Assembly: GCA_029262415.1 (NCBI GenBank)
Contig: JAJCZL010000068.1
Location: 2,372-66,371, forward strand
From: Deltaproteobacteria bacterium
Lineage (GTDB): Bacteria; Desulfobacterota; Binatia; UBA1149; JAJCZL01
Direction of reading: 5' to 3'
DNA: 64,000 bases
This document shows, piece by piece, positions 42,397-59,437 of the stretch. The position numbers and the translations under genes are program-made. Under the pieces are notes generated by a model. That model was given only the letters and a program-made list of their open reading frames with translations, searched no databases and had not been told where the DNA came from. How positions within the stretch are numbered: the first letter of the stretch is position 1; every line of letters starts with the position of its first letter.

Positions 42397-43761
42397 TTAT
42401 CTTGCCTCCAGCGCGTTTCTTGTCATGCGCACGGCATAGAAACCATCGGTGTTGTGACGATGCGGCAGCGTGCGCAGGCTGCCGTCGTCGGCAAACAGCT
42501 CGGGGTCTATCTCGGGCGTTGCTGACGGCTCTGCCATTGTGAAGGTCGTGTGGTGTTCAAGAAAGCCGCGCACGATGTCTTGGTTCTCGGCGCGGGCAAT
42601 CGTGCATGTCGAATACACCAGCGTCCCGCCGGGGCGAACGAACGCGGCCGCGGCGGCAAGCAGCTCGCGCTGCATGGCCGCCAGGCGCCCGACGTCGGCG
42701 CGGCTGCGCCGCCATCTGATTTCGGGGTGCTGGCGAAGCGTGCCGAGGCCGGTGCAAGGGGCATCAACGAGCACGACGTCAAAGCTGCCGGTCTGTGCGG
42801 GGTCGAGACCTGTTAGCGATCCGTGGTGAATGCGGACGGGTGCGCCCTCTTGTTCGGCGCAGCGTGCGCGTTCAAGTGTCGCGCGAATCAACTCGGGTGC
42901 GTGCGCGGTCGGGTCTACCGCGAGTACGCTGCCCTTCGGGCCCGCAAGTGCGGCCAAGTAGGCGGTCTTTCCGCCCGGCGCTGCGCAGGCATCGAGCACC
43001 CGGTCGCCTGCGCGCACACCGGCCAACACGCAGACCAGTTGTGATGACTCGCCTTGTGCAATCGCTATGCCCGGCGCCTCGACGCTCTTGCGCGCGACGA
43101 TTGCATCGGGGCCGTAGCGCGCAGGGCCGGCTTCGATGCCCTCGGCGGCCAGTGCGGCAAGTGCACGGCTGCGCGCGACGAGCGCGCGCAGCACCACTGG
43201 GTTGGCCTCGTTGTTGGCTTGCATCAGTGCGTCGGCTTCGTCTGTGCCGAGCTCGTTGCGCCACATTTCGATCAGCCAGCCCGGGTGTGAGAATTCAAAC
43301 GCCGCCCGTTTTAGGTTGTCTTTGATCTGCGGCGCCGCCAGTTTCTCGCGCAGTGCGCGGCGTAACACCGCGTTGATCAGGCCGCCGGCTTTGGGCGCCA
43401 GACGCTTTGCGAGTTCGACGGCCGAATCGACCACCGCATAAGAAGGCACGCGATCGAGAAACAACAGTTGAAACAACGCCGAGCGCAACAGCACGCGCAC
43501 CGCCGCATCGAGTTGGTCGGTGCTCTTGTCGATACGCGCGCCGATGTGGGCATCGAGCGTTAGCTGCCGCGCGAGGGTGCCGTAGGCGATGATGGTGGCA
43601 AGGCCGCGATCGGCTTCTGAGAGCGTCGTGCGCGCAAGCTCGCGTGCGAGCACGGCGTCGGCGAACGCGCCGCGTTCTTCGACTTCGAGCAGCACGCGTA
43701 CGGCGAGTTCGCGCGCGGCGAGTCCCACCGCGTCGCGCGCACGCTGCTTAGACTGCGGCAC
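42397..43761 (-). CDS. rsmB: 16S rRNA (cytosine967-C5)-methyltransferase RsmB/Sun
   Basis: NusB-like N-terminus; MTase motifs DACAAPGGKT and PCTGLGT. Confidence 0.8.
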   Translation of the reverse strand: MPQSKQRARDAVGLAARELAVRVLLEVEERGAFADAVLARELARTTLSEADRGLATIIAYGTLARQLTLDAHIGARIDKSTDQLDAAVRVLLRSALFQLLFLDRVPSYAVVDSAVELAKRLAPKAGGLINAVLRRALREKLAAPQIKDNLKRAAFEFSHPGWLIEMWRNELGTDEADALMQANNEANPVVLRALVARSRALAALAAEGIEAGPARYGPDAIVARKSVEAPGIAIAQGESSQLVCVLAGVRAGDRVLDACAAPGGKTAYLAALAGPKGSVLAVDPTAHAPELIRATLERARCAEQEGAPVRIHHGSLTGLDPAQTGSFDVVLVDAPCTGLGTLRQHPEIRWRRSRADVGRLAAMQRELLAAAAAFVRPGGTLVYSTCTIARAENQDIVRGFLEHHTTFTMAEPSATPEIDPELFADDGSLRTLPHRHNTDGFYAVRMTRNALEAR

Positions 43762-43764
43762 CGC

Positions 43765-44763
43765 TCAGCCTTCGAAGCGATGCGGCAAATGTTTGCCGTA
43801 TCCGCGCACGAAGTCGGCAGCCGCCATCTGCTTCTTGCCCTCGGGTTGCACGCGGGTGATGCGCAAGAGTCCTTCGCCGCAGGTGACGAGCAATCCGGCC
43901 TCGCCGGCGTCGATGATCTCGCCGTGTGACTGCGCGATGTCCGTCGCCGGCCCGGCGTGCGCGGCGGCTTGGCTGTCAGTGGGGTTGCCAAGCTGCAACA
44001 TGCTCTCATCAATAACGTGTGCAGCGAGGATCTTCAGCCGCTTGCCGCCCAAGAATGTGAACGCAGCGGGTGATGGCAGGAACGCGCGGATCTGACGGTC
44101 GATCGCGTGTGCGTCGGCCGTCCAGTCTATACGCATGTCTTGTTTCGTCAGCGGTGGTGCCGGCGTCGCGAGTGCGTCGTTCTGTGGGGTGAAGGTCGCC
44201 GTGCCGTTGTTGAGCTGTGTGATCACCTGGACGAGCAGCTCGGCCGACATGTCGGCCATGCGCTCACGCAGCTGTCCGCCGGTTATCCGCAGCCCGATGG
44301 GGATAGTCTGCTCCAACATCACATCGCCGGCGTCCATACGTTCGTTAATGCGAATGATAGTGACGCCGGTTTCATCGAGCCCTTGCAGCATCGCGCGTTC
44401 GATCGGTGCGGCGCCGCGCAGCGCGGGCAAGATCGAGCCGTGCGCGTTGATACAGCCGTGCCGCGGGATCTCGAGAACGCTGTTCGGAAGAATCCGTCCG
44501 TAAGCCACGACCACGCCGAGGTCGGGTGCGATCTTGGCCAGTCGTTCGGCGAAGGCCGGGTCTTTCGCGCTGCGCGGCTCCAAGACCTCGAGGTTGTGCT
44601 TGAGCGCGAGGGTCTTGACGGCGCTCGGCTGCAGCTTTTTGCCACGGCCCGCGGGCGCATCGGGGCGTGTGACCACCGCCGCGATCGTGCAGCCGTCAAA
44701 GTCGAGCAGCCGGGCCAGGCTGATTGCCGCATAAGGCGGCGTGCCCATGAACACACAACGCAT
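43765..44763 (-). CDS. fmt: methionyl-tRNA formyltransferase
   Basis: HGCINAHGSILPALRGAAPIERAML motif; start refined to MRCVFMGTP. Confidence 0.85.
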   Translation of the reverse strand: MRCVFMGTPPYAAISLARLLDFDGCTIAAVVTRPDAPAGRGKKLQPSAVKTLALKHNLEVLEPRSAKDPAFAERLAKIAPDLGVVVAYGRILPNSVLEIPRHGCINAHGSILPALRGAAPIERAMLQGLDETGVTIIRINERMDAGDVMLEQTIPIGLRITGGQLRERMADMSAELLVQVITQLNNGTATFTPQNDALATPAPPLTKQDMRIDWTADAHAIDRQIRAFLPSPAAFTFLGGKRLKILAAHVIDESMLQLGNPTDSQAAAHAGPATDIAQSHGEIIDAGEAGLLVTCGEGLLRITRVQPEGKKQMAAADFVRGYGKHLPHRFEG

Positions 44764-44906
44764 CAGGGTCATCGGTTACAGCGGACACGGCCCGACGCAA
44801 ATCGGATCGGCCGCCACGGTCATATTTGCAGACGGAATGGCGTATATGCGTCGTTGAGAACCCCGGTGACGATTCACAACGCGTGTCCGGATCGGAGGTT
44901 CGCCCC

Positions 44907-45125
44907 GTGAGGGTCAAGTACTACAAAGAGACCGATTCGCTCTATATCGACCTTGCCGAGGTGCCGAGTGCCGAGAGTCGCGAGGTCTCCGAAGGGATCG
45001 TTCTTGACTACGATGCCGACGGCAACCTTGTCGGGATCGATATCGACAACGCTACGGCTAAGGTCGGCCTTGAGCGCTTGGTTGTCAGCAGCCTGCCGGG
45101 CACCGTCGAAACTGACGCGGCTTGA
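44907..45125 (+). CDS. DUF2283-family small protein
   Basis: GGAGG RBS + GTG; VKYYKETDSLYIDL...LDYDADGNLVGIDIDNA matches the DUF2283 pattern; sits between def and fmt on the opposite strand. Confidence 0.45.
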   Translation: MRVKYYKETDSLYIDLAEVPSAESREVSEGIVLDYDADGNLVGIDIDNATAKVGLERLVVSSLPGTVETDAA

Positions 45126-45141
45126 GACCGAGCCCTTCCTT

Positions 45142-45687
45142 TTAGATGTTGGGGACGTTGCTCTTGCTGGGATCGGGGTCGGGGATATCGCCGAGTTTTT
45201 TCAGGCGCTTGCGGTACATCTCGCGTTTCAGGCGTGAGAGGTGGTCGATGAACAGGGTGCCGTCGAGGTGGTCGATCTCGTGTTGCAGGCAAACCGCCGC
45301 CAGATTTTCGGCCTCGATCTCGATCTCTTTGTGATCCAGCGTCCAGCCCTTGACCAAAACCCGCGATGCGCGCGTAACCTCGGCGGTGTAGTCGACCACC
45401 GACAGGCAGCCTTCTTCGGTAATCTGGCTGCCTTCGGCCTCGATAATCTCGGGGTTGATGATCTTGAACAGTTCTTTGCCGCGGTCGTTTTCGCGGCCGA
45501 CATCGACGACGATCACGCGCTCGAGCACGCCCACCTGGTTGGCCGCCAGCCCGATACCGTTCGCGCTGTACATCGTGTCGGCCATGTTGTTCAGCAGTGC
45601 GGCCGTCTTGCCGTCGATTTCTTTAACCTTTTCGGCTTCCTTGGCGAGGATACCGTCGGGGAATCTGTGGATGCGCAGAAGCGCCAT
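45142..45687 (-). CDS. def: peptide deformylase
   Basis: GIGLAANQVG, EGCLS and QHEIDHLDG motifs; start refined to MALLRIH. Confidence 0.85.
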   Translation of the reverse strand: MALLRIHRFPDGILAKEAEKVKEIDGKTAALLNNMADTMYSANGIGLAANQVGVLERVIVVDVGRENDRGKELFKIINPEIIEAEGSQITEEGCLSVVDYTAEVTRASRVLVKGWTLDHKEIEIEAENLAAVCLQHEIDHLDGTLFIDHLSRLKREMYRKRLKKLGDIPDPDPSKSNVPNI

Positions 45688-45900
45688 CCTGCTAGATAAC
45701 GTGAGATTGGAGTTGGGTGCAAGGCAGCAGCTGTGGCTGCGGGTCGCGGTGGGAGTGTCGAAAACACGGATTCCGGCATTTAGAGTGCCCGGTCTAAGTG
45801 GCGAACTCACACAAAAAGACTATTTCTACACTTGGCCCGGTGTCGGCACGGTTTGTACGCAGCCGTGGATTGGCCACACACCTCTTCTCCTTTTAACTTG

Positions 45901-47262
45901 ATGCCGCCGACCCGACCAAACACAAACCCGACTGCGCAATCGGCGGTGGCCGCCGGCCGCCAGGCGGTGTTGCGTACGATAACGCGCGAGGGCGTTGCCT
46001 CTAGTGCGATGGTCGGCATCGGCGAGACCTACTTCGCCGCCTTCGCCTTGGCTCTCGGGCACAGCGACGCAACCGCCGGTCTGCTCGCTTCGGTGCCGCT
46101 GTTGGCAGGTGCGGTGTTGCAGATGGCGACACCCAAGGGGCTGGTGCGGCTGCAGTCCTACCGGCGCTGGGTGGTCGGCAGCGCGGTGGTGCAGGCGCTG
46201 ACCTTTGTGCCGCTTATCTGGGGAGCGCTGGCCGGGCGGCTGCCGACCTCTACCTTATTTATTTCGGCCGCGCTGTACTGGGCGGCCGCAATGTCGACGG
46301 CGGCCGGCTGGAATCCGTGGGTCGGTCGCATGGTGCCGCGCCGTACGCGCGCGCGCTACTTCGCCCACCGTGCCCGCTACGCGCAAGCGGCCGTGCTTGT
46401 CGGCATCTGCTTGGGCGGGGTCGTGCTGCACGTCTTTGACGACGGTCCGCAAAAACTCCACGGCTTTGCGTTGCTGTTCGCGATCGCATTCGTGGCGCGT
46501 GCGGTATCGTCACGTCTGCTCGCTTTGCATCCCGATGCTGATCCCTGCTCCGAGCCCGACCCCGACGAGACCGCGGCAATTACACCGGCCGCGGTGGGCG
46601 GCCGCCGACTGTTCGCCTATCTACTCGGCTCGCAACTCACCGTGCAGGTCGCCGCGCCCTACTTCACGCCCTACATGCTCGAGCATCTGCATTTCGGCTA
46701 CGCGCCTTACGTGGCGTTGACCGCCGCGTCTTTCCTTGCACGGATCGTTGCCGCGCCGATGCTCGGCCGCTTCGCGCACAACTACGGTGCCAGGCGGATG
46801 TTGCGCGTCTGCGCGCTCGGCATCACGCCGTTGCCGCTGTTGTGGTTGGTGTCGAATTCGTTCGGCTACTTGCTGGTCGTGCAACTGATAGCCGGTGTCG
46901 CTTGGGGCGGGTACGAGTTGGCGACGTTGCTGTTGTTTTTCGATGCAGTCTCCGAGCGCAGCAGACCGGCCTTGCTCGCGAAGTTCAACCTGGCCAACGC
47001 CGTCGCGATGGTCGTCGGCGCGATGCTCGGCGCGTGGCTGCTCGGCGCCGCGGGCAGCAGTTTGACGACCTACGCGTGGTTGTTCGGCGTTTCCGCCCTA
47101 GGCCGCGCGGCAGTCTTGCCGCTACTCGGCCGCATCCCCGACTACGTGCCGCCGCCGGGGGCCGCAGACGAACTGCCGATCCGTACGATGGCGGTGCGGC
47201 CGTCGATGGGCGCTATTCAGCGGCCGGTGTTGGCGGGGTTGCCGGGGGATAAGAGTGGGTGA
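45901..47262 (+). CDS. MFS transporter
   Basis: 12 predicted TM helices, MFS-like Gly/Arg-rich loops; start may be 45832 or 45901. Confidence 0.6.
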   Translation: MPPTRPNTNPTAQSAVAAGRQAVLRTITREGVASSAMVGIGETYFAAFALALGHSDATAGLLASVPLLAGAVLQMATPKGLVRLQSYRRWVVGSAVVQALTFVPLIWGALAGRLPTSTLFISAALYWAAAMSTAAGWNPWVGRMVPRRTRARYFAHRARYAQAAVLVGICLGGVVLHVFDDGPQKLHGFALLFAIAFVARAVSSRLLALHPDADPCSEPDPDETAAITPAAVGGRRLFAYLLGSQLTVQVAAPYFTPYMLEHLHFGYAPYVALTAASFLARIVAAPMLGRFAHNYGARRMLRVCALGITPLPLLWLVSNSFGYLLVVQLIAGVAWGGYELATLLLFFDAVSERSRPALLAKFNLANAVAMVVGAMLGAWLLGAAGSSLTTYAWLFGVSALGRAAVLPLLGRIPDYVPPPGAADELPIRTMAVRPSMGAIQRPVLAGLPGDKSG

Positions 47263-47280: not shown

Positions 47281-48273
47281 CTACCCCAGGAAACAGTTCT
47301 CGTTGTGCCAGGTCAGCGTGGCAGCATCGGGTCGGTCTGATTCTGTGTGGGGAACGTTGATCTGTTTCCCGTGAAGCGGGTAGTACGTGCGCCCGTTCTC
47401 AAAGTCTGCTTTCAAGCGTGCGCTGACTTCGAAACGGTGCTCGGGCGTGACCGTGACGTAGCCTTTGTCGAAGAGGCGATGGAAGTCCGAACGAAGTAGC
47501 AAGCCGTTCGCCGTGGCGTGCTCGCCACCCTTGGCGTACGGGCGAATGTGTGCAGCCTCCAGAGCCGGCAGCGAGTGCTCGGATGAGACGGCGCAGGTGC
47601 GTCCATACGCGTCCGTCACCGCGATGCGGAATGTCCCTTGGCCGAGGCGCGGCCTCACCAGAGTCGGCTGGCCGAAGCGTTCGGCCGGCTCGGCGATCGA
47701 CGGTGAAGAGGCGCCGCCAGCTGCTCGGGCGTAGTCGGCCTGGACGCGGGCCTGGCACTCTTGGTAAATGCGGAGTCCTTCACCCTGGCTGAGATCCTCT
47801 TGTCGACCTTGAACGGTCGCTTTTCCCCAATCGGACGGTTCTCGTACCCATTCACCTGGTGCAAAGAAGACGGGTTGGGTAATCATTAGACAGCCGACAC
47901 TGTAAGACCCACTTGGATCTCGTTTCTCGGGCTTTCGGTATCGTTCGATCCGCGCGACCATTTCTTCGAATGTTGTCGCTCCGTTTGCTTCTTCGAAGCT
48001 TTCCCAGGCGAGCCACGCAGGCAAGACTGAGGCACGCGCGAGAAACCCGAATCCCCCTATCGCGTTGTGCGGTGCCTTTAGCTTGAAGAAGAACGGAGTG
48101 CCCGGGGGCTTGCTGTGGAATGTCTTTGCGCCTGACGGTTGCCAGAAGTTCACTTCGTCCAACGTCTCGCGGGCGCGCAAGAACTCGTACCAATCAAAGT
48201 CTGTGGGTGCGATGATCCCGTGCATCCGAGTTATCTCTTCTATATAACCGCACCGTTGCGCGTGGCCTAACAA
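47281..48273 (-). CDS. PUA-like (EVE/ASCH-type) domain fused to HNH_2 nuclease; candidate modification-dependent restriction endonuclease
   Basis: N-terminal EVNFWQPSGAKTF...PGTPFFFKLK..NAIGGFG (PUA-like fold pattern); C-terminal CAVSSEHSLPALEAAHIRPYAKGGEHATANGLLLRSDFHRLFDKGYVTV (HNH_2 pattern). Confidence 0.55.
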   Translation of the reverse strand: MLGHAQRCGYIEEITRMHGIIAPTDFDWYEFLRARETLDEVNFWQPSGAKTFHSKPPGTPFFFKLKAPHNAIGGFGFLARASVLPAWLAWESFEEANGATTFEEMVARIERYRKPEKRDPSGSYSVGCLMITQPVFFAPGEWVREPSDWGKATVQGRQEDLSQGEGLRIYQECQARVQADYARAAGGASSPSIAEPAERFGQPTLVRPRLGQGTFRIAVTDAYGRTCAVSSEHSLPALEAAHIRPYAKGGEHATANGLLLRSDFHRLFDKGYVTVTPEHRFEVSARLKADFENGRTYYPLHGKQINVPHTESDRPDAATLTWHNENCFLG

Positions 48274-48320
48274 CCCAGGTGTTTCGTCGGCAACGCGATG
48301 CGTCGCGTACTGGATCGGGG

Positions 48321-48692
48321 ATGGGTATGAGTGATCAGGAGCGATCAGTTGGAGAGCTAAAACATCGAGTGGCGGACTTCTGTTCCGCGCGCGACTGGGA
48401 CCAATTTCACGGTCCCAAGTCTGTCGCAGCCGGTCTGGTCACGGAGGCGGCTGAGTTGTTAGCCGAGCTACGCTTCGCGACCGATGAACAAGAGATAGCG
48501 GCCGTGCAGGATCCCGCTCGCCGCGAACGGCTGGCCGATGAGTTGGCTGACGTGTTTTTCTTCCTGCTCCGTTTTGCCCAACGATTCGATTTCGATCTGT
48601 CCGAATGCCTGGACGCCAAGCTTGCAAAGAATGCCGAGCGTTACTCCGTTGCGAAGTCGCGCGGACGCAACGCGAAGTACGATGAGCTTTAG
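48321..48692 (+). CDS. MazG-like nucleotide pyrophosphohydrolase domain protein
   Basis: EAAELLAE...ELADVFFFLLRFA helix pair typical of the all-alpha NTP-PPase (MazG) fold; start between 48279 and 48327. Confidence 0.6.
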   Translation: MGMSDQERSVGELKHRVADFCSARDWDQFHGPKSVAAGLVTEAAELLAELRFATDEQEIAAVQDPARRERLADELADVFFFLLRFAQRFDFDLSECLDAKLAKNAERYSVAKSRGRNAKYDEL

Positions 48693-48695
48693 TCG

Positions 48696-50639
48696 ATGAG
48701 ACTCTACTCGGGGCCGGTCGACCGCTTCATCAGCGACACGGTTCGCAACCGTGTCGCTGACAAGCTGAAGGACGCATTCTTCGCCTATCACCGCTTCCAG
48801 CCGGGGCCGAGTGAAGTCACATCTTGGCGCAACTCGCTGCGCGCAACGGCGCAGGTCTTTCAAGAGGCGGGGTTCGACGACCACGGCGTCATCCTTGAAT
48901 ACCAACTGCCAATGACGTCGAAACGGCTCGATTGCATGGTCTCGGGCCGCGATGCCGCGGGTGCTCCAAACGCTGTGATCATGGAGCTTAAGCAATGGGA
49001 CAAATGCGAGGAGGCCTACGGTGACGAAGTGGTCGCCACATTCGTCGGTGGGGCTGTTCGTGAGGTGTTGCATCCGTCGGCACAGGTCGGCCGCTACCAG
49101 CGCTATCTAGAAGACTCGCACACGGCTTTCTACGATGGGGAGAACCCGATCAAGCTGAGTTCATGTGCATACCTACACAACTACACGCCTGTAGAGAACG
49201 ACCTGCTCTTGGCGGAAAAGTACCGTCCGCTGCTTGATGAGTTTCCGACCTACACAGCTGACGATGTCGATGAGCTGCTAGGGCACCTTACCGACAAACT
49301 CGGCGCAGGTGGCGGGATGCCGCTTCTCGAGCAGATCGAGGAGAGCCGATACCGGCCGAGCAAGAAGCTGTTGGACCACGTCGCCGGCGTGATCAAGGGG
49401 AAACCTGAGTACGTACTGCTCGACGAACAAGAGATTGTTTATGAGCGGGTGCTCTCCGCTGCGCAGGATGGGTTCGCGGATCGCAAACACGCTGTAGTGA
49501 TCGTGAAGGGTGGACCCGGTACGGGCAAATCGGTCATCGCGATCAATCTGCTCGCCGATCTCTCGTTGAAGGGCTTCAATTCGCACTATGCGACCGGTTC
49601 GAAGGCGTTTACTGAAACTCTGAGGAAGGCGGTTGGGAAGCGAAGCGAAGTGCAGTTCAAGTACTTCAACCAGTATGGCCAGGCGCAACCTAACGATGTC
49701 GACGTGCTGATCTGCGATGAAGCGCACCGGATTCGTGTGACGAGCAACGACCGGTTCACGCCGAAAGCGAACAGGTCGGACAACCCACAAATCGATGAGC
49801 TATTTGATGCCGCGAAGGTCAACGTATTCTTCATCGACGACAAGCAAGGTGTGCGGCCGCTGGAGATCGGTTCGGCTGATTACATCCGAGACGCTGCCGC
49901 CCGCCGTGGCAGCCGAGTGTTTGACTATCAGCTGGAGGCGCAGTTTCGGTGCGCCGGCTCTGACGGGTTCGTTAACTGGGTGAGCAATACGCTTGAGATC
50001 GAGCGTACCGCCAATGTGCTCTGGGACGCAGGCGACGAACAATTCGACTTTCGCATCATGGATTCGCCGGCTGCGCTCGAGACCGCGATTCGACAACGGG
50101 TGTTTGACGGAAACACCGGCCGAATGGTCGCCGGGTTTTGCTGGCCCTGGTCTAAACCGAAAGCAGATCGGACCCTAGAGGATGACGTTGTTATCGGGGA
50201 TTTTGGCCGCCCCTGGAATGCGCGCTCCGACGCCGGTCGACTCGCCCAGGGCATACCGAAGGAGTCGTTCTGGGCGACGGATCCGAACGGTATCGAGCAG
50301 GTCGGATGTGTATACACCGCTCAAGGTTTCGAATTCGACTACGTCGGCGTGATCTGGGGGCCTGACCTTGTTTACGACTTTGATGCGAACGCCTGGCGTG
50401 GTGACAAGACCGCGTCGAAAGACTCAACGGTAAAGCGTGCGAAAGAAGGGTTTACCGAGTTCGTTAAAAATACGTACCGCGTGCTTTTATCACGTGGGAT
50501 GAAGGGGTGCTACGTGTACTTCATGGACAAGGATACGGAGAGGTATTTTAAAAGTCGGATGGAGGGGTTGGATAAGGCGGCTGATCGATGGGGAGATTTG
50601 GAGGCGGCGGAATCGAAGCCGAAATACGGGTCTGAGTAG
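48696..50639 (+). CDS. DUF2075-family protein: N-terminal PD-(D/E)xK-like nuclease motif + SF1 helicase/ATPase core
   Basis: RLDCMV...IMELKQW (D..ExK); Walker A VKGGPGTGKS; Walker B VLICDEAHR; UvrD-like motif VYTAQGFEFDYVGV; start 4 nt after the MazG-like gene stop. Confidence 0.65.
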   Translation: MRLYSGPVDRFISDTVRNRVADKLKDAFFAYHRFQPGPSEVTSWRNSLRATAQVFQEAGFDDHGVILEYQLPMTSKRLDCMVSGRDAAGAPNAVIMELKQWDKCEEAYGDEVVATFVGGAVREVLHPSAQVGRYQRYLEDSHTAFYDGENPIKLSSCAYLHNYTPVENDLLLAEKYRPLLDEFPTYTADDVDELLGHLTDKLGAGGGMPLLEQIEESRYRPSKKLLDHVAGVIKGKPEYVLLDEQEIVYERVLSAAQDGFADRKHAVVIVKGGPGTGKSVIAINLLADLSLKGFNSHYATGSKAFTETLRKAVGKRSEVQFKYFNQYGQAQPNDVDVLICDEAHRIRVTSNDRFTPKANRSDNPQIDELFDAAKVNVFFIDDKQGVRPLEIGSADYIRDAAARRGSRVFDYQLEAQFRCAGSDGFVNWVSNTLEIERTANVLWDAGDEQFDFRIMDSPAALETAIRQRVFDGNTGRMVAGFCWPWSKPKADRTLEDDVVIGDFGRPWNARSDAGRLAQGIPKESFWATDPNGIEQVGCVYTAQGFEFDYVGVIWGPDLVYDFDANAWRGDKTASKDSTVKRAKEGFTEFVKNTYRVLLSRGMKGCYVYFMDKDTERYFKSRMEGLDKAADRWGDLEAAESKPKYGSE

Positions 50640-50649
50640 CGCTTCCTCG

Positions 50650-53600
50650 ATGGCGTTGAATTGCCCTTTCTGTTCCCCCGCCTCCGAGTCCGTCTTCCAC
50701 GCGGGCTCAGCGATTCTCGCCCTCTGGGACGCCCACCCCGTCTCCCAGGGCCACGCCCTCCTAATCCCTAAACGCCACGTCGAAACCTGGTTCGACGCCA
50801 CGCCTGAGGAACAAGCCGAACTCACCGCCGCGATTGCAATAGCTAAGCAGGCGATTGAAGAACAGCACACGCCAGACGGCTACAACATCGGCATCAACGT
50901 CGGCCCCGAGGCAGGACAAACCGTCTTTCACCTGCACGTCCATGTGATCCCGCGCTACCGTGGTGACGTCGACGATCCGCGTGGCGGCGTGCGCTCGGTA
51001 ATTCCTGCCAAGAAAATCCCCGAGAGCGCCCTTACAACCGGCCCGGTCGACGGTGACGAGACGGTCAAGGACACCGAGAACGCTCGATACGCTCCGTCGG
51101 CACTCACGGGTCTGCCGCGCAATCGCGGGATCGTCACGGGTGGCCTGGACGATCCGCTCATCTATCACCTACGCGCACACCTTGACGACGCACGACGCGC
51201 CGATATCGCCGTTGCCTTTGTGCTCGAGACCGGTGTGATCGAAATCGAGGCGCACCTGGCCGAGATCGTCACCAAAGACGACGGCCGCCTGCGTTTGCTA
51301 ACCGGCGACTACCAAGGCGTGACCGAACCCGGCGCGCTGCGCCGCTTGCTCGATCTGACAGCACCTCATCCCGAGCGCGTCGAGCTGCGCGTGTACGAAA
51401 CCGGAGGCGGTAGTTTTCATCCAAAATCCTACATCGTTGAGAACCGCCGCGGCGAGGTTACGGCCTATGTAGGCAGCTCGAACCTGACGCGCACGGCACT
51501 GCGCACCGGCGTTGAATGGAACTACCGACCAGGGAGTGTCTCGCATCCCGAGGGCGTGACCGACGTGCAAGCTGCGTTCGAGCGACTTTTCAAGGACCCA
51601 AAGACCAAGCCGCTCGATGCCGTATGGATCGATAGCTATGAAGCCCGGCGCGCAACGGCGCAGACGCGCATGGACGCACCGGCCGGTATTCCCGATGAAC
51701 CCCCGCCGCCACCGCCCGATCCGCACGCTATCCAACAAGAAGCGCTCGCCGCACTAGGCGCCACGCGCGATGATGGCAACCGCGCAGGCCTTGTGGTGAT
51801 GGGCACGGGCCTTGGTAAGACCTGGCTTGCGGCCTTTGACAGCGCCGTGGCCGGTGCGCGACGCGTGTTGTTCGTCGCGCACCGCGAAGAGATTCTGGCA
51901 CAGGCGCTTTCAACATTTCGCCGCATCCGTCCTGAGGCCAAGCTCGGCTTCTTTAACGGGCTGGCGAAGATCGCCGATGCCGACGTGCTGTTTGCGTCTG
52001 TGCAGACACTCAGCCGCCGCAACCACCTGGACCGCTTCGACGCGCACGATTTCGACTACATTATTATCGATGAATTCCACCACGCCGCCGCGGCGACTTA
52101 CCGGCGTGTGATCGGTTACTTTGAACCGGAGTTCCTGCTGGGACTGACGGCAACGCCCGAGCGCACCGACGGCGGCGACTTGCTCGGCCTTTGCGGTGAA
52201 AACCTCGTTTACCGCTGCGACTTCCTGCGCGGGATCCGCCAAGGCCTGCTCTCACCGTTTCACTACTTCGGCGTGCCCGATGAGGTCGACTACGCGAACA
52301 TCCCGTGGCGAAGCTCGCGCTTTGACGAAGCAGAACTAACTCTCGCCTTGGCCACCGAGAAACGCGCGGCCAATGCGTTGGCGCAGCTTCGCGAGCGCGG
52401 CGGCACACGGACTTTGGCTTTTTGCTGCTCAAGGCGCCACGCCGATTTTATGTGCGAATACTTCAGGGGCGCGGGTATGCGCGCGGCGGCCGTCCACTCG
52501 GGCGAGACTTCCGACCCGCGCGCTACTTCCTTGGAACTGCTCGAAGAAGGCGAACTCGACGTCGTTTGCGCAGTAGACATGTTCAACGAGGGCGTCGACA
52601 TCCCCGAGGTCGACACCGTCTTGATGCTGCGCCCAACCGAGTCGCGCATCCTTTGGCTGCAGCAGCTCGGGCGCGGCTTGCGGCAGTGCGAGGGCAAGAC
52701 GCTTAAGATCATCGACTACATCGGCAACCACCGCAGCTTCTTGCTAAAACCGCAGGCGCTGTTCGGGTTGGAGCAGGGCGATCGCCACGTCCGTGATGTG
52801 CTGGTGGCCGTCGCCGCTGGCTCGTACGACCTACCGCCCGGATGTGAGGTGACCTACGACCTTGAGGCTGTGCGCATCTTCGAGGCGATGCTTCATTCAG
52901 AGAGCGCGGGCGACCTGATGCGCACGTTCTACGAGGATTTTCTTGCCGAACATGGCGAACGTCCGACCGCCCCGGAAGCGTTTTATGCGGGCCTTTCGCC
53001 GCGCTCGGTTCGCAAGAGCTACGGGTCGTGGCTTGGGTTCATAGAGCAGATGGGTGGGCTCACCGAGCCCGAGCAGGCCGTGCGCGCGGGTAGCACCGGC
53101 ACGCTACTTGAGCACCTCGAGACCACGCCGATGTCGCGGAGCTTTAAGATGCTCGTGCTGCTCGCGATGATCGAAGCGGAGGCCTTTCCGGGGCGGATCT
53201 CGATTGAGGATCTTGTCGAGAGAGTGCGAAAGATGGCGCGCCGGTCGGTTCGCGTGCGTACCGATCTTGGCGTCGATATCGAAGACGCCGAAGTAGTGCG
53301 TCGGCATCTCGAACAGAATCCAATTGCAGCCTGGGTCGGAGGGCAGGGGACCGGCGGTGATGCCCACTTTGCTTACGAAGACGGCGAGTTCCGTACGGTG
53401 TTCGGCGCCGGCGACGTTAGTGATGCGCATGCGTATTTGGATCTTGCGCGCGAGTTGGCCGAGTGGCGTTTGGTGCAGTACTTGGATCGGCCGGGGCAAT
53501 CTGACGGCGATCGGATTGTTTGTAGCGTCACGCACAACGCGTCGGGCACGCCCATCTTGATGCTGCCCGATCGCGAGAGGGTGGCTCAGATTCCGAAGGG

Positions 53601-54282
53601 CTGGGTTCGGGTACGAATCGGCGAGGAAAACTTGGAGGCGAACTTCGTAAAGATCGCAGTCAACGTCATGCGGCGTGAAGATACCGAGGAGAACGTACTT
53701 GGGGAAGTATTACGGGGATGGTTCGGTGAGAAGGCCGGCGCATCGGGGACTGCGCAGCGGGTGGTGTTTGAGAGAGGCGAGGATGCGTATGAGTTGGTGC
53801 CGGTCGGGGTTGATGTCCCAGGCAAACCGTCTGGTGCGATCGTGGGCAAGGCCTACAAGCGTGCCGATATTCCCGGGTTGTTTGACCAGGAGCTGACGGT
53901 CGATTTCCAACGCTCGGGTTTCATCGTGAGAGACGGGCACATGTACTTGCTCGTCACGCTTGATAAGTCCGGCTTCGCCGAAGAACACAAATACGGCGAC
54001 CGGTTTCTCTCAGGAGAACTATTCGAGTGGCAGAGTCAGAACCGAACGACGCAGAGTGGTAAGCACGGGCAGCTGATCAAGGGGCACCGAGAGTCTGGCG
54101 TAACGGTGCATCTGTTTGTGCGCGAGCGTAAGGACGTCAGAGGCACGGCATTGCCGTATGTGTATTGCGGCGACCTCGACTTCGTGGATTGGGAAAGAGA
54201 GAAACCGATTACCGTGCGCTGGCGGTTGCAGGTACCGCTTTCAGCCGATCTTCAACGAAGGTTCGCGGTTGGTAGGTCGTAG
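50650..54282 (+). CDS. 1210-aa multidomain protein: HIT (histidine triad) - PLD/HKD nuclease - SF2 helicase (ResIII + HelicC) - DUF3427
   Basis: HIT HLHVHVIP (aa 94-100); HKD FHPKSY...GSSNLT (aa about 256-280); Walker A GTGLGKT and DEFH; helicase-C QQLGRGLR; C-terminal DUF3427-like region; start 10 nt after the DUF2075 gene stop. Confidence 0.7.
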   Translation: MALNCPFCSPASESVFHAGSAILALWDAHPVSQGHALLIPKRHVETWFDATPEEQAELTAAIAIAKQAIEEQHTPDGYNIGINVGPEAGQTVFHLHVHVIPRYRGDVDDPRGGVRSVIPAKKIPESALTTGPVDGDETVKDTENARYAPSALTGLPRNRGIVTGGLDDPLIYHLRAHLDDARRADIAVAFVLETGVIEIEAHLAEIVTKDDGRLRLLTGDYQGVTEPGALRRLLDLTAPHPERVELRVYETGGGSFHPKSYIVENRRGEVTAYVGSSNLTRTALRTGVEWNYRPGSVSHPEGVTDVQAAFERLFKDPKTKPLDAVWIDSYEARRATAQTRMDAPAGIPDEPPPPPPDPHAIQQEALAALGATRDDGNRAGLVVMGTGLGKTWLAAFDSAVAGARRVLFVAHREEILAQALSTFRRIRPEAKLGFFNGLAKIADADVLFASVQTLSRRNHLDRFDAHDFDYIIIDEFHHAAAATYRRVIGYFEPEFLLGLTATPERTDGGDLLGLCGENLVYRCDFLRGIRQGLLSPFHYFGVPDEVDYANIPWRSSRFDEAELTLALATEKRAANALAQLRERGGTRTLAFCCSRRHADFMCEYFRGAGMRAAAVHSGETSDPRATSLELLEEGELDVVCAVDMFNEGVDIPEVDTVLMLRPTESRILWLQQLGRGLRQCEGKTLKIIDYIGNHRSFLLKPQALFGLEQGDRHVRDVLVAVAAGSYDLPPGCEVTYDLEAVRIFEAMLHSESAGDLMRTFYEDFLAEHGERPTAPEAFYAGLSPRSVRKSYGSWLGFIEQMGGLTEPEQAVRAGSTGTLLEHLETTPMSRSFKMLVLLAMIEAEAFPGRISIEDLVERVRKMARRSVRVRTDLGVDIEDAEVVRRHLEQNPIAAWVGGQGTGGDAHFAYEDGEFRTVFGAGDVSDAHAYLDLARELAEWRLVQYLDRPGQSDGDRIVCSVTHNASGTPILMLPDRERVAQIPKGWVRVRIGEENLEANFVKIAVNVMRREDTEENVLGEVLRGWFGEKAGASGTAQRVVFERGEDAYELVPVGVDVPGKPSGAIVGKAYKRADIPGLFDQELTVDFQRSGFIVRDGHMYLLVTLDKSGFAEEHKYGDRFLSGELFEWQSQNRTTQSGKHGQLIKGHRESGVTVHLFVRERKDVRGTALPYVYCGDLDFVDWEREKPITVRWRLQVPLSADLQRRFAVGRS

Positions 54283-54347: not shown

Positions 54348-54941
54348 TCACCTCAACTTCCCCTCCGTCCGCAGCACCGCCTTTGTCAGCAACCGGATAA
54401 TCTCGACCTCGGTCACCCCGAATCGTGCAAGCAATTCGTAGACCCGGCCGACAGTTGTTTGGACCTCCTTTCTCGCCCGTCGCGTCTTCTCGGTTTGGCC
54501 GGCTGCTTCGATTTCGGCCGGGGTGGCTTTGAGCAAGGCGGCTACGCGTAGAACCAGAGTTGCATCGATCGGACTGTCTGGCACCGGCACGTCTTTTCGT
54601 GTCGACCCAGCGGTTCGCGCGCCCGCCGGTTCCTTGGGCTCAAAGCCGCGAACGGAGAACTTGCCGATTTTCAGTTGGCCGCCCTCAATCCCGATCTCGA
54701 TATCCTTGCTTCGCGGCAGCATCGTTCGCAGCTTTACGAGCGGAGTAACGCTGATCGAGATTCGCCCAAGTGACGCCCCACGCGCAGGGATCGTGTGTTT
54801 TACGCGCGGCATCTCGAATCGAACTGCATCGCCGGTAACGGTCACGACAACTCGGCACGCGCCGAACTGCTTCTCGGCGGTCGCCAACTGTTTGAGTGCG
54901 TCGCGCAGTTCTCTGCGGTCTACCTTTGTACGGCTGGCCAT
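54348..54941 (-). CDS. hypothetical protein (no recognizable domain)
   Basis: 197-aa ORF with M start, convergent with the giant helicase gene; no motif recognized. Confidence 0.35.
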   Translation of the reverse strand: MASRTKVDRRELRDALKQLATAEKQFGACRVVVTVTGDAVRFEMPRVKHTIPARGASLGRISISVTPLVKLRTMLPRSKDIEIGIEGGQLKIGKFSVRGFEPKEPAGARTAGSTRKDVPVPDSPIDATLVLRVAALLKATPAEIEAAGQTEKTRRARKEVQTTVGRVYELLARFGVTEVEIIRLLTKAVLRTEGKLR

Positions 54942-55082: not shown

Positions 55083-55283
55083 CTACTTGCCCTTAGCGTC
55101 CTGTGTTTGACGGGGTTTGTCGTTCGCTTCTTCACGTGACCGCCTCGTCTCGTCGTTTCGCAAGATACTGTCTACACTCGGCGTTCGCATCCATTCAGGC
55201 CAGGCCTCGACCTCCTTGGCCGTACGGTGCACATCCTTCCAGAAATCTTCGCTGCTAGCTTTCTTGTTCTTTTTCATGAGCAC
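55083..55283 (-). CDS. small Lys/Glu-rich hypothetical protein
   Basis: 66-aa ORF upstream of 54348..54941 on the same strand; local GC lower than surroundings. Confidence 0.2.
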   Translation of the reverse strand: MLMKKNKKASSEDFWKDVHRTAKEVEAWPEWMRTPSVDSILRNDETRRSREEANDKPRQTQDAKGK

Positions 55284-55489
55284 TCACCTTCAAGGATTCT
55301 CCGATTCCGTCAAGAAGAGCAACTGCCTTCTTTTCGCGTTCTGGGTATGCGATTGAAACCATTGGCGTACGAGGGTGCGAGTCCACCGCACGCTCTGTTT
55401 ATTACTGATGGGATTGCAACTCCCCCCGGCCCCGCCTCGCCCCGCCCCGGCTTGTCACCACGACTTCCACAGCTTAGTTTCGACACCCA

Positions 55490-57182
55490 CATGGCTGGTC
55501 GCAAAAAGCCGCGCCGCCGTCGCGCTCGGACATCCGCGCGCGCGGAGGGCTGCGGGCAGTGGGTTCTTGCGGTGCGGAGGTTTCCCGGCGTGGTTGCCGA
55601 GCCCGGCCGCGACGAAGTCCGTCCGCTGATTGTCATCTGCTACGAGACCGAATCCGACCTTGTCGTGGGACAGACGCTGGTGATGCCCGATGAGCTGACC
55701 GGCGCGTGCGCACGTGTGCTGAGCAGCGCGTGCGCGGCACCGTCGGCGGGCGCCCCGAGGACCCCGGCCCGTGTGTGGGTGGAGAGCGTGGAGATCGCAG
55801 AAGAACTCTCCTCCATCAAAGGTCTTCGCGCCGAGGTTGTCGTCGGCGAGGTGCCGGAGATCGATGGGGTGATGGATTCGTTGCGGGCCTCGTTGGCCGG
55901 CAGCGGCCGGGCTTCCGACGAAGGGCCGGGCTACCTGCAAGACGGCGGTTTATCGCGCGAGACGGTTGGCGCGTTGTTCGAGGCGGCGCGCGCACTGTAC
56001 GCCGTCGCACCGTGGAAGGATTGCAACGAGTGTCTTGCTCGCATCGATATTCCCGAGCTCGACGTGGCGGGGGCGTGTCTCGTGGTCATCGGCGCGCTCG
56101 GCGATGTTTTCGGGTTTTTGCTGTTCCCCTCGGCCGATGCCCATGAGCAGTTCATCGAAGCCACCGCGCGTACGCGACGCGGCGGGCCCGACCGTTTCGG
56201 CACACCGTTTACGTCGTTGACGTTTGTGTGCGCAGCCGATCTGCCCTCGCGGCACCGCCGCGAGGCCATGCGCGAGCGTTGGCCGGTAGCCTCCAGCGAA
56301 GCCTACCCGTTGCCCGAACGTCTGGACTCAGACGGACTCCGACGCTCCCTCACCGAACGCGACATGAAGGTGCTCGGCGCAGTCACCTCGGCTCTGTGCG
56401 CTTTCGCCGTTCGCCACCCACGATCGCTTACCGATCCCGACAGCGCTCCGGTGCGTGAAACCAGTTCGGGCCGCGACAACATCGCGGTTCGAATCACCGT
56501 GCCCTATGAGGCCTACGAGTTATTTGAAGCCAAACCAACGGGTGCGGCGGGCAAACGCGAGTCGAAGCTTAAGGTCGAAGACCGCTTACTCGGCAGAATG
56601 CTCGGGTTCGCATGCGAGACGCTGGGGCGCAGCTTCGTTGCGGAGATGGAAAGCGACTTCGACGACATCGAGTCTGCCGTTCAACTCGTGCTGCCCTTCG
56701 GCTTGTTTCATCGCCTCTACGGCGGGCGCACGGTTGCCGCGCGCTTCTTTGATGCCCACGGCTCAGAGCTTGCGGGCGAGGAGGCAAAGCTGTTTGCGGC
56801 GCACCGAGAGGGTTGGTTGAGCATTTGGGAGGTCGAGCAGGTGCAGCGCGGGCGCGGCCTGGAGTTGCTTGACGTCTTATCGGGCCAACGGTGCACGGTT
56901 GTCGAGAAAACGCTTTCTCGCAGTGTCGCCGAAGGGCATTGCCTGCTTGCGTGTGTGCTGCGCATGGATGGCCGGTTCGTCATCAACGGCATGCACGGGC
57001 GTCCGCTGGCGGCGCCTGTTGCCGCGCTAGTCGCCGAACGTGGGCGCAGGCGACTGCGCCGCAAGCGCGAGGTTCCGGTGGAGCGCTTGCGCGACGGCCG
57101 CTTCGCGCGCGCACTGCTCGGATACTGGGAAGACGCGGTTGCGACGCTCGATGCGGCTTTGCGGCCTAGCGGCCGCGGATAG
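55490..57182 (+). CDS. hypothetical protein (about 564 aa from MAGRKKPRRRR)
   Basis: Long ORF 55227..57182; Arg-rich N-terminus then acidic/Leu-rich body; no motif recognized. Confidence 0.35.
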
Positions 57183-57570
57183 AGAGAGCCGCGCGCCGCA
57201 AACCGCCGTGCCGCGCGAGCACCTCGAAATCGCTGTCGCAGTGTAGCACCGCGACGTCCTCGCGGATTGCCACCGCGGCGATCAGGCAGTCAATGAGTTT
57301 ACGAACGGTCTCGCCTTGCGCCCGGCATCGGCGGTGCAGTGCAGCGGCTTGGTCGTAGTCGCCTGGGCCGGTTGCAAGCACTGTTGCGCGGGCGAGCAAA
57401 CGCCTAAGGCTCATCAGGTGGCGGTCGTCGCGCGCCCCGGCCATGACCTCCATGCGGATCGGGTCGCAGACGGCGATTTCATCATCGAGCAGACGGTCGA
57501 CGCTGATGCATGCCGGTGAGCCGGTATCGCGCAGAAACTCGACCCATGCAGAGGTGTCAACGAGGGTCAC
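57166..57570 (-). CDS. vapC: PIN-domain toxin VapC
   Basis: MTLVDTSAWVEFLRD N-terminus; paralog of 36140..36541. Confidence 0.7.
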   Translation of the reverse strand: MTLVDTSAWVEFLRDTGSPACISVDRLLDDEIAVCDPIRMEVMAGARDDRHLMSLRRLLARATVLATGPGDYDQAAALHRRCRAQGETVRKLIDCLIAAVAIREDVAVLHCDSDFEVLARHGGLRRAALSIRGR

Positions 57571-57769
57571 TCGCCCGCCCGCTGCGCATTTGTTCCAGAT
57601 CTCCCTCCCAACCAGAGCCGCGCAGGCGCCTGGCCTCGTCGAGGTCCAGCGGTTCTGCGGCGAGCAGTTGTAGCGCGAGGTTCACGGCGTCGCGTTTGGT
57701 CGAAAGGCGGTAGCGACGCATAACCTCGGCGCAAGCCCGCTCGTCTATATCAATGTTCGTGCGCGCCAT
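57557..57769 (-). CDS. vapB: VapB-family antitoxin
   Basis: MARTNIDIDERACAEVMRRYRL N-terminus typical of VapB; overlaps vapC start by 14 nt. Confidence 0.6.
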   Translation of the reverse strand: MARTNIDIDERACAEVMRRYRLSTKRDAVNLALQLLAAEPLDLDEARRLRGSGWEGDLEQMRSGRASDPR

Positions 57770-58043
57770 ACACCACCTATACACCAATACGTGGCCAGCC
57801 TACAACCCGTCAAATCAGGCGCTATTGGGCACTTTTGCTCGACGACAATTACTTTTGCCGGTTGGGGTGGGGAGGTATATTGCGGGTCGGCGCTGCGTGG
57901 GCGCGCATGGGTAGACGACGCGCAGGGATTTGAGTCGGTTATTTGTTGATGGTAATAACTGGCATAAATTTGGTATTTAGATAGATTATTACCACTATTC
58001 GCGCAAGCCCTGCGCCCCGGTACTAGAGGGAAAGTCCTAATAA

Positions 58044-59099
58044 GTGAGATCTCTCGCCCCAGATTTCCTTGAGAAGCTTAGATTCTCGGTGGAGCAAACA
58101 TCGTCGCTGACCGCGCTCGGGCAGGCCTTCGCTCAGCAGCAGCTCTTCGAGAAACAGAGCCCCGAGGCACTTAAGACGCTTCGCACCTCGGCGATCGTCG
58201 AATCGACTGAATCCTCAAACCGTATCGAAGGTGTGGTTGCACCCAAGCAACGATTCGCGGCGATCGTTGCCGGTAAGTCGGAGCCCCGCAACCGCTCCGA
58301 GCAAGAGATCCTTGGTTACCGTGGGGTTCTTGAAATGGTGCATTCGAACGCATCGGAAATCCCGATCACGGCGAACTCGATCCGGCAGCTACACAAAGAG
58401 GTTTACAGGTATCACCCGAATGACGGCGGGAACTGGAAACCAGTAGACAATGAAATCGTCGAAAAGAATACGGCCGGTGAGATCGTGCGCGTTCGCTTCA
58501 AACCGGTCGCAGCTGTGGCGACGCCGCAGGCGATGGCCGACATCGAGCGACTGTACCGCCAGGCCACGACCGACGGTTGCGAGCCGCTCGTGGTGGCACC
58601 GCTTCTGATTCTGGACTTCTTGTGCGTCCATCCTTTTGCTGACGGAAACGGCCGAGTCAGCCGCCTATTGACGCTGCTGGCTCTGTACCACGCCGGCTTC
58701 AGTGTTGGTCGCTACATAAGTCTGGAACGTCTGATTGAAAACACGCAGTCGGACTATTACCGCGTGCTCGAAGCGAGTTCTCAGCGGTGGCACGACGGCA
58801 AGCACGACCCCCACCCTTGGCTCGAGTATTTCTGGGCGATTCTCCTAGCTGCCTACCAGGAGTTCGCCGAGCGCGTCGGCAAAGAATCGAGCGGTCGTGG
58901 TAACAAGACGATGCGTATCCGGGCGGCGATTGAACGCCGAGTCGGCGCGTTCCGCATGAGCGATCTCGAGCGTGACTGTCCCGGGGTGAGCCGAGAGATG
59001 ATCCGGGTTGTTCTGAACGAACTGCGTGACCACGGGCGCGCGGAAGTCACAGGCCGTGGTCGCGGCGCCGAGTGGCACAAGCTGGAGCCGAAGGATTGA
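58044..59099 (+). CDS. Fic-family protein (AMPylase-type)
   Basis: Canonical Fic motif HPFADGNGRVSR; AT-rich promoter region with 8-bp IR upstream. Confidence 0.8.
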   Translation: MRSLAPDFLEKLRFSVEQTSSLTALGQAFAQQQLFEKQSPEALKTLRTSAIVESTESSNRIEGVVAPKQRFAAIVAGKSEPRNRSEQEILGYRGVLEMVHSNASEIPITANSIRQLHKEVYRYHPNDGGNWKPVDNEIVEKNTAGEIVRVRFKPVAAVATPQAMADIERLYRQATTDGCEPLVVAPLLILDFLCVHPFADGNGRVSRLLTLLALYHAGFSVGRYISLERLIENTQSDYYRVLEASSQRWHDGKHDPHPWLEYFWAILLAAYQEFAERVGKESSGRGNKTMRIRAAIERRVGAFRMSDLERDCPGVSREMIRVVLNELRDHGRAEVTGRGRGAEWHKLEPKD

Positions 59100-59437
59100 T
59101 CGCTGCCGAGATCACTCGTACCTGAGAAACGCCTCGTACCTCTCCTCAAGAAACTCAGCCTTGGGCCGCAACTCCGCACTCCGCGGCACGTGGATCGGCT
59201 GATCATGCACTCCCCTTGTCCCTTCTCTGGCGGCGCGGTAGTGCGGATCGACAACGGAATCTCTGCGAGCACCGCCGGTTTGAAGATGCCTTGTTGCGAG
59301 ACTAGCGGCACCCGCCGGCCTTCGAGTTGGAAGCCCTCGCTTAGAACCTTCCAAGGAAGTACGTCTCGGCGTAGGCCTATCCACTCCGTGTAATATTCTG
59401 CTTGCATTTGATTGCACTGCTTCGTACTCTCTTCATC

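Follow-up and report, generated by a model that had tools for sequence, protein, structure and literature searches.

A MazG-like/DUF2075 gene pair and a HIT-bearing SauUSI-like gene in a probable defence island of a Binatia bacterium

Three closely packed genes on the plus strand of contig JAJCZL010000068.1 (Deltaproteobacteria bacterium; GTDB lineage Desulfobacterota, Binatia) raise the question whether their arrangement reflects one multi-gene defence system. All coordinates refer to the window, the whole 64,000-nt stretch of this contig that was analysed, and gene 1, gene 2 and gene 3 denote the three packed open reading frames (ORFs), located at 48279-48692, 48696-50639 and 50650-54282 and separated by gaps of 3 and 10 nt. 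A preliminary description had proposed that the trio is an undescribed three-gene system. Its same-strand ORF coordinates and gaps were reproduced exactly, and every domain named in it (MazG-like, DUF2075, HIT, PLDc_2, ResIII, Helicase_C and DUF3427) was matched by a Pfam profile. Since the Pfam E-values of the three genes are so strong, the possibility of chance ORFs in GC-rich DNA was rejected. Direct results on the identity of genes and domains, on conserved motifs and on the statistics of gene neighbourhoods indicate that genes 1 and 2 are a conserved two-gene module, that gene 3 belongs to the SauUSI type of Type IV restriction enzyme with a predicted activity of that kind, and that the trio is not a conserved unit.

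Distribution of the three genes

To survey the neighbourhood of the gene 2 family, 80 species-level GTDB loci were examined together with their flanks, at most 10 kb per side and 1.2 Mb overall. The DUF2075 gene has a MazG-like gene within 2 kb in 51 of these loci; in 49 the two are immediate neighbours, typically spaced by -4 to +6 nt. No MazG-like gene was found within 2 kb in the other 29. Most of the MazG-like genes are upstream of DUF2075, whereas about 10 are downstream, and 3 are encoded on the opposite strand. In Nitriliruptoraceae and Acidimicrobiia the MazG-like gene follows the DUF2075 gene directly, often with a -4 overlap, so that adjacency is kept while the order is changed. The pair spans bacteria, archaea, plasmids and phage, is present in four of six IMG/VR loci, and occurs in a RefSeq Priestia plasmid as genes annotated 'nucleotide pyrophosphohydrolase' and 'DUF2075 domain-containing protein'. 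Adjacency that survives a change of gene order over such large distances is strong evidence for a functional pair, and genes 1 and 2 are a conserved two-gene module. No Rosetta-stone fusion of the two proteins was found among the best 150 representatives. Neither PADLOC v2 nor the searched literature contains the pair, and the literature yielded nothing relevant on MazG with Nhi or Schlafen or on a dCTPase in defence. Judged from sequence, it is reasonable to regard the pair as a new two-gene defence candidate of the Nhi-like kind.

A SauUSI-like gene, the counterpart of gene 3, was found within 10 kb of DUF2075 in only 3 of the 80 loci, where it is convergent (L011), divergent (L054) or degraded (L080). 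For the reciprocal survey, 80 metagenomic loci carrying a member of the gene 3 family were used, and in 46 of them a flank of 3 kb or more is available on one side; the HIT domain is present in 35 of the 80. The MazG/DUF2075 pair lies near the gene 3-family gene in only four loci, convergent in L100, divergent in L137 and on the same strand in L109 and L112. Only in L109 and L112 do all three genes share a strand, with a degraded example in L080; a further trio contig (L001, Logan) has the same sequence as the window and is not independent. The closest relative of gene 2 (66% identity, L171) adjoins neither a MazG nor a SauUSI gene. Since co-occurrence is rare, orientation is mixed and the closest relatives lack the other module, the trio is not a conserved unit, and the proposal of a single three-gene system was not borne out. 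The accompanying claim that the trio has no name does stand, as no PADLOC-DB v2.0.0 system covers all three genes: gene 1 matches none of the models, among which there is none for a MazG partner, gene 2 has weak matches only, and gene 3 matches a single-gene Type IV model. The preliminary description had also held that homologs which never co-localise would speak against a system. The modules do co-localise, more than expected by chance, and a looser functional link between them is therefore possible.

Several occurrences of the pair are of interest in their own right. The Microcystis phage Mwe-JY31 (L176, PP438423.1) carries the MazG-like and DUF2075 genes at 1629-5863, preceded by the gene of a TPR protein, and a TPR gene also overlaps a MazG-like gene on a Hymenobacter plasmid (L172:13118-15479). 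On a contig of a putative giant-virus metagenome-assembled genome (IMG/VR GVMAG-S-1041346-124, L168) the pair is found at 4246-6485. An opposite-strand RhuM-family gene splits the MazG-like and DUF2075-S24 genes of an Elusimicrobia locus (L030:7671-9908), leaving them 1.9 kb apart.

The ORF of gene 1 opens at GTG 48279; the true start is most likely the in-frame ATG at 48321 or 48327, since the resulting 123 or 121 aa fits the 107-137 aa of the homologs. The 137-aa version with the GTG start has no entry in the protein collection. Taken from the first of these ATG codons, gene 1 occupies 48321-48692 (plus strand) and is preceded by a 95-nt divergent intergenic region (48226-48320) that may hold promoters. 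The gaps of 3 and 10 nt make co-transcription of genes 1-3 plausible in this genome, and one transcript could end after gene 3, since the next downstream ORF (54348-54941, 197 aa, no family match in the profile scans) lies on the minus strand. From this spacing, the three genes are probably co-transcribed. A promoter and terminator scan of 47.0-55.5 kb found no promoter-like site, with no match to the sigma-70 consensus in 48226-48320, and terminator-like sites were as frequent as in shuffled sequence; being at background, the scan says nothing on operon structure.

The pyrophosphatase and the nuclease-helicase

Gene 1 matches the MazG-like family PF12643 (7.6e-11; 42.5 bits against a curated cut-off of 27), and its best solved relatives are structures of dCTP pyrophosphatase 1 (DCTPP1/RS21-C6; 6sqw/2a3q, 6.9e-17). 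Of 52 MazG partner proteins, 51-52 retain the metal-binding motif E42xxE45...E74xxD77. Gene 1 is thus predicted to encode a catalytically intact, small, all-alpha nucleoside triphosphate (NTP) pyrophosphatase. It shares with DCTPP1 the small all-alpha NTP pyrophosphatase character and the ExxE...ExxD metal site, but is prokaryotic, belongs to a family of 107-137 aa and is genomically coupled to a nuclease-helicase. DCTPP1 prefers 5-modified dCTPs.

The 647-aa product of gene 2 (48696-50639, plus strand) matches the SLFN-g3_helicase/DUF2075 family PF09848 at 4.5e-93. Its superfamily 1 (SF1) DUF2075/Schlafen group 3 helicase core spans residues 266-611 (49491-50528), contains Walker A at G272-GPGTGKS279 and Walker B at D341-E342, and gave fold matches to SF1 helicases and SLFN11. 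The N-terminal residues 1-220 (48696-49355) form a putative nuclease domain that the preliminary description had assigned to the PD-(D/E)xK type. Residues D79, E97, K99 and Q100, which include the E97-x-K99 motif, are invariant across family members of 31-61% identity. In an AlphaFold2 (AF2) model the N-terminal 220 residues have a pLDDT of about 85 and follow the order helix-strand-strand-strand-helix-strand that matches the PD-(D/E)xK type; D79 falls on strand 77-85, and the ExK motif on strand 91-99. Pfam gave only weak N-terminal matches, each through a single family member (NERD 0.003, REase_MTES_1575 0.008). Sequence searches of the PDB with gene 2, with the family profile and with an N-terminal-only profile returned no significant match. 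Fold searches with gene 2 were dominated by the helicase core and gave no confirming match for the nuclease fold, a point that also weighs against the modular explanation given below. The invariant residues and the compatible secondary structure support that part of the earlier claim, the weak Pfam matches point the same way, and a PD-(D/E)xK-type nuclease domain is likely but not proven.

The gene 2 family comprises 857 clusters at 50% identity (E<=1e-30), and even between archaea and the many bacterial phyla in which it occurs its members remain 42-66% identical. Of the 120 closest homologs, 59 end in an extension of about 180 aa that resembles LexA (Peptidase_S24), and all of the extensions carry the GxSM motif, which suggests RecA-dependent self-cleavage as a switch. 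Examples are the homologs P0002 and P0016 and those of loci L008, L016, L024, L030, L031, L042 and L044, as well as L100 (15062-17479); the gene 2 of the window lacks the extension. The whole nuclease-DUF2075 unit is fused in some homologs to N6_Mtase, Type_ISP_C, caspase, PNP_UDP, DUF4365 or PIF1 domains, the fused proteins including P0454 (1153 aa), P0421 (1612 aa), P0443, P0468, P0500 and P0494. Fusions with an N6 methylase and a Type ISP C-terminal specificity domain resemble Type ISP-like restriction-modification enzymes with a DUF2075 motor.

An N-terminal PD-(D/E)xK-type nuclease followed by a DUF2075 SF1 helicase within about 600-650 aa is the architecture of Nhi of Staphylococcus epidermidis (SERP2475) and of Nhi-like proteins. 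Nhi, which has this nuclease and DUF2075 layout, degrades phage replication intermediates and is a validated anti-phage protein; 'Nhi-like' nuclease-DUF2075 proteins were validated against phage as well and have no sequence identity with Nhi (Millman et al. 2022). The matches of gene 2 in PADLOC were all weak (PDC-S41 1e-19; Nhi 6.2e-10; AbiO 3.3e-10). Since the similarity to the Nhi and AbiO models is confined to aa ~238-390, around Walker A, gene 2, with its putative nuclease domain, would share the architecture of Nhi but is a different family, and by sequence it falls outside the Nhi family model. It differs further in that most family members are paired with a MazG-like gene, a pairing not described for Nhi, that about half of the closest homologs carry the LexA-like S24 extension and that the family reaches archaea. 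The best PADLOC model, the candidate PDC-S41, has 657 positions, close to the length of gene 2, and aligns with it in three stretches, but the similarity is distant (68 bits) and PDC-S41 is listed as a single-gene candidate.

The HIT-bearing SauUSI-like enzyme

Gene 3 (50650-54282, plus strand) encodes a protein of 1210 aa with a HIT domain at aa 20-104 (50707-50961; PF01230, 3.4e-23), a PLD/HKD nuclease domain at aa 200-313 (51247-51588; PLDc_2, 2e-06), a superfamily 2 (SF2) ATPase/helicase core (51721-52683) composed of ResIII at aa 358-505 (5.5e-36) and Helicase_C at aa 576-678 (2.5e-13), and a C-terminal DUF3427 at aa 1065-1205 (53842-54264; PF11907, 2.9e-21). It matches the PADLOC model of Type IV methyl-directed enzymes (mREase_IV, PDLC03659) at 1.5e-113 and the structure of SauUSI (PDB 7clg_A) at 9e-98, with residues 186-709 aligned to 56-576 of the latter. 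The PLD/HKD region falls inside the aligned stretch and the HIT domain precedes it. In an alignment of 18 homologs the histidine triad H94-x-H96-x-H98 of the HIT domain, the HKD residues H257-x-K259 and S276-S-N278, Walker A (G387-LGKT391) and the DEFH motif (474-477) are all invariant; each chain has one HKD motif. Searches of the PDB identified the HIT domain as Fhit/Hint/Ap4A-phosphorylase-like.

SauUSI combines a PLD nuclease, a helicase and a DUF3427 specificity domain in a single polypeptide; it depends on ATP, cleaves DNA containing 5-methylcytosine or 5-hydroxymethylcytosine and acts without a partner methylase (PMC3141236, PMC6765204). Gene 3 likewise unites a PLD/HKD nuclease, an SF2 ATPase/helicase and a C-terminal DUF3427, in this order, in one polypeptide, has a single HKD motif as well and has no DNA methyltransferase gene beside it. 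Among the ORFs scanned from ~38.7 to 63.5 kb no cognate DNA methyltransferase was found, the sole methyltransferase being the rRNA enzyme RsmB (42397-43761). Gene 3 differs from SauUSI in the extra N-terminal HIT domain with its intact histidine triad, in about 120 more residues between helicase and DUF3427 (1210 aa against 953 aa in total) and in the SprT-like gene that lies upstream of its closest relatives. Other branches replace HIT with a SAM-methyltransferase domain, as in L109. These comparisons identify gene 3 as a full-length SauUSI-type Type IV restriction enzyme with an added HIT domain and predicted activity, whose DUF3427 is presumed, by analogy with SauUSI, to be the domain that recognizes modified cytosine in the target. 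All of the best 120 homologs share the architecture of ~1,200 aa with HIT, PLD, helicase and DUF3427 at 52-59% identity, and HIT-SauUSI is thus a populous subfamily, not a local accident. No description of a HIT fusion to SauUSI was found in the searched literature, which also offered nothing relevant on a histidine triad against phage or on SprT-like proteins with Type IV enzymes; a preprint on END nucleases does not cover the architectures of gene 2 and gene 3.

In 7 of the ~12 metagenome loci closest to gene 3, the gene 3 homolog is immediately preceded by a SprT-like gene (PF10263), and in the closest relative (58% identity, L173-L175) such a gene overlaps the start of the gene 3 homolog by 4 nt; the window has no SprT-like gene. 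SprT-like genes were located at L173:2342-2890, L085:723-1256, L086:1603-2124, L087:107-565, L088:70-540, L091:854-1393, L094:1850-2281 and L096:179-670. In eukaryotes the HIT, HKD and SprT folds are those of aprataxin, Tdp1 and Spartan, proteins that act on DNA adducts and on crosslinks between DNA and protein. This analogy is raised for the HIT/HKD/SprT set without a claim as to its meaning for gene 3.

Two further kinds of locus bear on the HIT domain and its replacement. In L018:11990-15347 and L030:12421-16780 three HNH genes (HNH_2, HNH/HNH_4 and a PUA-HNH gene of the window type) follow directly after DUF2075, and embedded in these arrays, between two of the HNH genes, is a stand-alone HIT gene of 127 aa that is 44-49% identical to the HIT domain of gene 3; the L030 array also holds a NERD gene. 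The stand-alone gene links HIT to nuclease clusters even where it is not fused to SauUSI. The SauUSI-like proteins of L109:3592-7440 and L112:3829-7677 have 1282 aa. At their N-terminus HIT is replaced by a SAM-methyltransferase domain, a Peptidase_S24-like match lies between helicase and DUF3427, and their genes are downstream of, and on the same strand as, a MazG-DUF2075 pair of divergent sequence.

Island setting and rival explanations

Upstream of gene 1, a gene on the minus strand (47281-48225, 314 aa) encodes a PUA-superfamily reader joined to an HNH_2 endonuclease, by its domains a putative modification-dependent restriction nuclease that can be listed beside the VcaM4I-type PUA(EVE)-HNH modification-dependent endonucleases (Lutz et al. 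2019). An alternative naming as a 'PT-DNA (phosphorothioate) restriction enzyme' was rejected, as the NCBIfam match reached 65 against a cut-off of 180 bits and covered the HNH part only. GC content at third codon positions (GC3) is 0.74-0.81 in rsmB, fmt, def and the MFS gene (42397-47262) and 0.63-0.75 in every gene from PUA-HNH (47281; ~47.3 kb) to the end of the window. This shift marks, as far as composition can tell, the left edge of a horizontally acquired island directly after the MFS transporter gene. Together with the defence and toxin-antitoxin (TA) genes that follow, it supports the defence-island context claimed for the locus. In the gene 2 family the flanks are likewise enriched in defence genes: among the 140 genes in the immediate flanks of DUF2075 loci the commonest family is HNH_2 (9 genes by Pfam; 8 'HNH' by PADLOC), the flanking HNH_2 proteins being full-length homologs of the PUA-HNH of the window and occurring in ~12 of the 80 loci, more often than a SauUSI-like gene does. 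Other flanking genes match BREX, DISARM, Hachiman, Hma and Type IV models of PADLOC.

The explanation that we consider probable is that a horizontally acquired defence/TA island begins in this region and holds three separable nuclease modules, directed at modified DNA, and not an obligate three-gene system. The biochemical activities, substrates and co-transcription of these modules are inferred from sequence. The first module would be the divergently transcribed PUA-HNH modification-dependent nuclease. The effector of the second would be the Nhi-like PD-(D/E)xK nuclease/SF1 helicase, attacking invading or replicating phage DNA, and its translationally coupled partner, the DCTPP1-like pyrophosphatase, may hydrolyse non-canonical (5-modified) dCTP or otherwise control the dNTP pool; in the S24-bearing homologs the nuclease-helicase could be controlled by RecA bound to single-stranded DNA (ssDNA). 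In the third module DUF3427 would read modified cytosine, the SF2 motor would translocate on ATP and the HKD nuclease would cut after dimerisation, with the HIT domain as an added nucleotide-hydrolase module. Modules 2 and 3 are juxtaposed here with a 10-nt gap and are probably co-transcribed.

Nothing in the locus is of an entirely new kind: gene 3 is a variant within the SauUSI kind and gene 2 a family-level variant within the Nhi-like kind. Neither PADLOC v2 nor the searchable literature appears to describe the partnership with MazG, the S24 extension, the fusion to HIT or the SprT-like partner. If the modular explanation is true, the locus is an ordinary defence island with two testable, apparently undescribed variants. 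The first would be a very widespread and unusually well conserved pair that links nucleotide-pool editing to DNA degradation in immunity. The second would be a large HIT-tagged branch of SauUSI-type Type IV enzymes, often accompanied by a gene for a SprT-like protease. Both bear on how cells handle phages with modified DNA. Prokaryotic DUF2075 proteins are, in addition, the closest bacterial relatives of the helicase domain of Schlafen, a group of human antiviral proteins. For annotation, the locus teaches that tight spacing in a single genome is insufficient to call a multi-gene system.

Several observations weigh against separable modules. With gaps of 3 and 10 nt the three genes are likely to be transcribed together, and co-transcribed genes often cooperate. 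L109 and L112 repeat the one-strand order MazG, DUF2075, SauUSI-like in copies of very divergent sequence, the DUF2075 protein there being only 34% identical to gene 2, and all four genes of the window (PUA-HNH, MazG, DUF2075 and HIT-SauUSI) occur together in L100, rearranged, and in L080 as degraded copies. A PUA-HNH gene is directly upstream of MazG on the same strand in at least five loci (L034, L038, L041, L080 and L083), and on the Priestia plasmid an MrcB_N reader gene upstream of MazG overlaps it by 4 nt. DUF2075 genes had moreover been seen beside DUF3427 nucleases, and a coupling proposed (Lutz et al. 2019). Apart from the spacing, these points favour the main rival explanation, an integrated system in which the pair is an accessory processing unit of the adjacent modification-dependent nucleases, PUA-HNH and HIT-SauUSI: a reader-nuclease would nick or cut modified phage DNA, the DUF2075 nuclease-helicase would load at the break and degrade, and MazG would destroy released or phage-made modified dCTP, blocking its re-use and self-restriction of the host. 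The rank of PUA-HNH as commonest flank (9/140), the HNH arrays with stand-alone HIT directly after DUF2075 in L018 and L030 and the closeness of the MazG protein to DCTPP1 fit as well, and the recurrences in L109, L112, L100 and L080 together with the reader-MazG-DUF2075 operons keep this explanation alive. About 80% of pairs, however, have no adjoining reader-nuclease and orientation to SauUSI-like genes varies, which argues against an obligate link. In addition, 29 of the 80 DUF2075 loci lack MazG, SauUSI and Nhi each function as single proteins, HIT-SauUSI has another usual partner in the SprT-like gene, and PUA-HNH genes are about as dense around SauUSI-like loci as around the pair, as island clustering predicts. 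An integrated system is accordingly held to be improbable. We likewise regard as unlikely the bolder proposal that the pair is an undescribed two-gene immune module of bacteria and archaea against phages with modified cytosine. It would combine destruction of the modified dCTP pool of the phage, which also keeps this dCTP out of host DNA, with a nuclease-helicase that degrades the DNA of the invader, a RecA/S24 switch in about half of the closest relatives and interchangeable readers (PUA-HNH, MrcB_N proteins, SauUSI-like enzymes) recruited as sensors, so that the four genes of the window would form one cooperating network.

Two other functions were considered for the pair itself. It could be a toxin and regulator of an abortive-infection-like kind, MazG restraining or triggering a self-damaging nuclease-helicase through a nucleotide signal and the LexA-like S24 variants being switched on by RecA-ssDNA after DNA damage. 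The -4 overlaps and the translational coupling are typical of two-component toxin/regulator pairs, the GxSM-bearing extensions of 59/120 closest homologs would supply the switch, the surroundings are TA-rich in the window, L003 and L171, and the 29 DUF2075 loci without MazG would make MazG a modulator, not an essential part. The catalytic motif of MazG nevertheless shows strict conservation and is nearest to that of house-cleaning dCTPases rather than to known antitoxins, and Nhi clears phage DNA without killing the cell, so that we rate this function as decidedly unlikely. A housekeeping role in DNA repair and nucleotide-pool sanitation, with an incidental island location, would suit the unusual conservation of DUF2075 (42-66% identity from bacterial phyla to archaea), the SOS connection suggested by the LexA-like S24 link and the L002/L007 pair, which is flanked by the suf operon and a gene for an outer-membrane protein and has no defence genes in its vicinity. 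The family is, on the other hand, patchy across distant phyla, missing from the core of E. coli type and carried on plasmids and viral contigs, and GC3 marks the pair in the window as acquired DNA. Flanks enriched in defence genes and fusions of a restriction type, with methylase/Type ISP, caspase and PNP domains, place the DUF2075 family in restriction or conflict biology and not in housekeeping repair, and the probability left to a housekeeping role is very small.

The neighbourhoods contain some further features. On the Priestia aryabhattai plasmid (L177, NZ_CP083270.1) genes for a restriction endonuclease, a MutT 8-oxo-dGTPase, MrcB_N, MazG-like and DUF2075 proteins stand in a row at 1634-6815 that adjoins a Type I restriction-modification system; MutT is the second nucleotide-sanitising enzyme of this cluster. 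In the window, the part of the island at 55227-63511 encodes a DUF6930 protein of 651 aa, whose gene overlaps an opposite-strand PIN gene (57166-57570), a SoFic-like Fic protein (58044-59099; PADLOC SoFic, 2.3e-35), a Phd/YefM-like gene and PRiA4_ORF3, AbiEii on the minus strand (61036-62226) and an HTH_3 and Fic/Doc pair (62466-63511).

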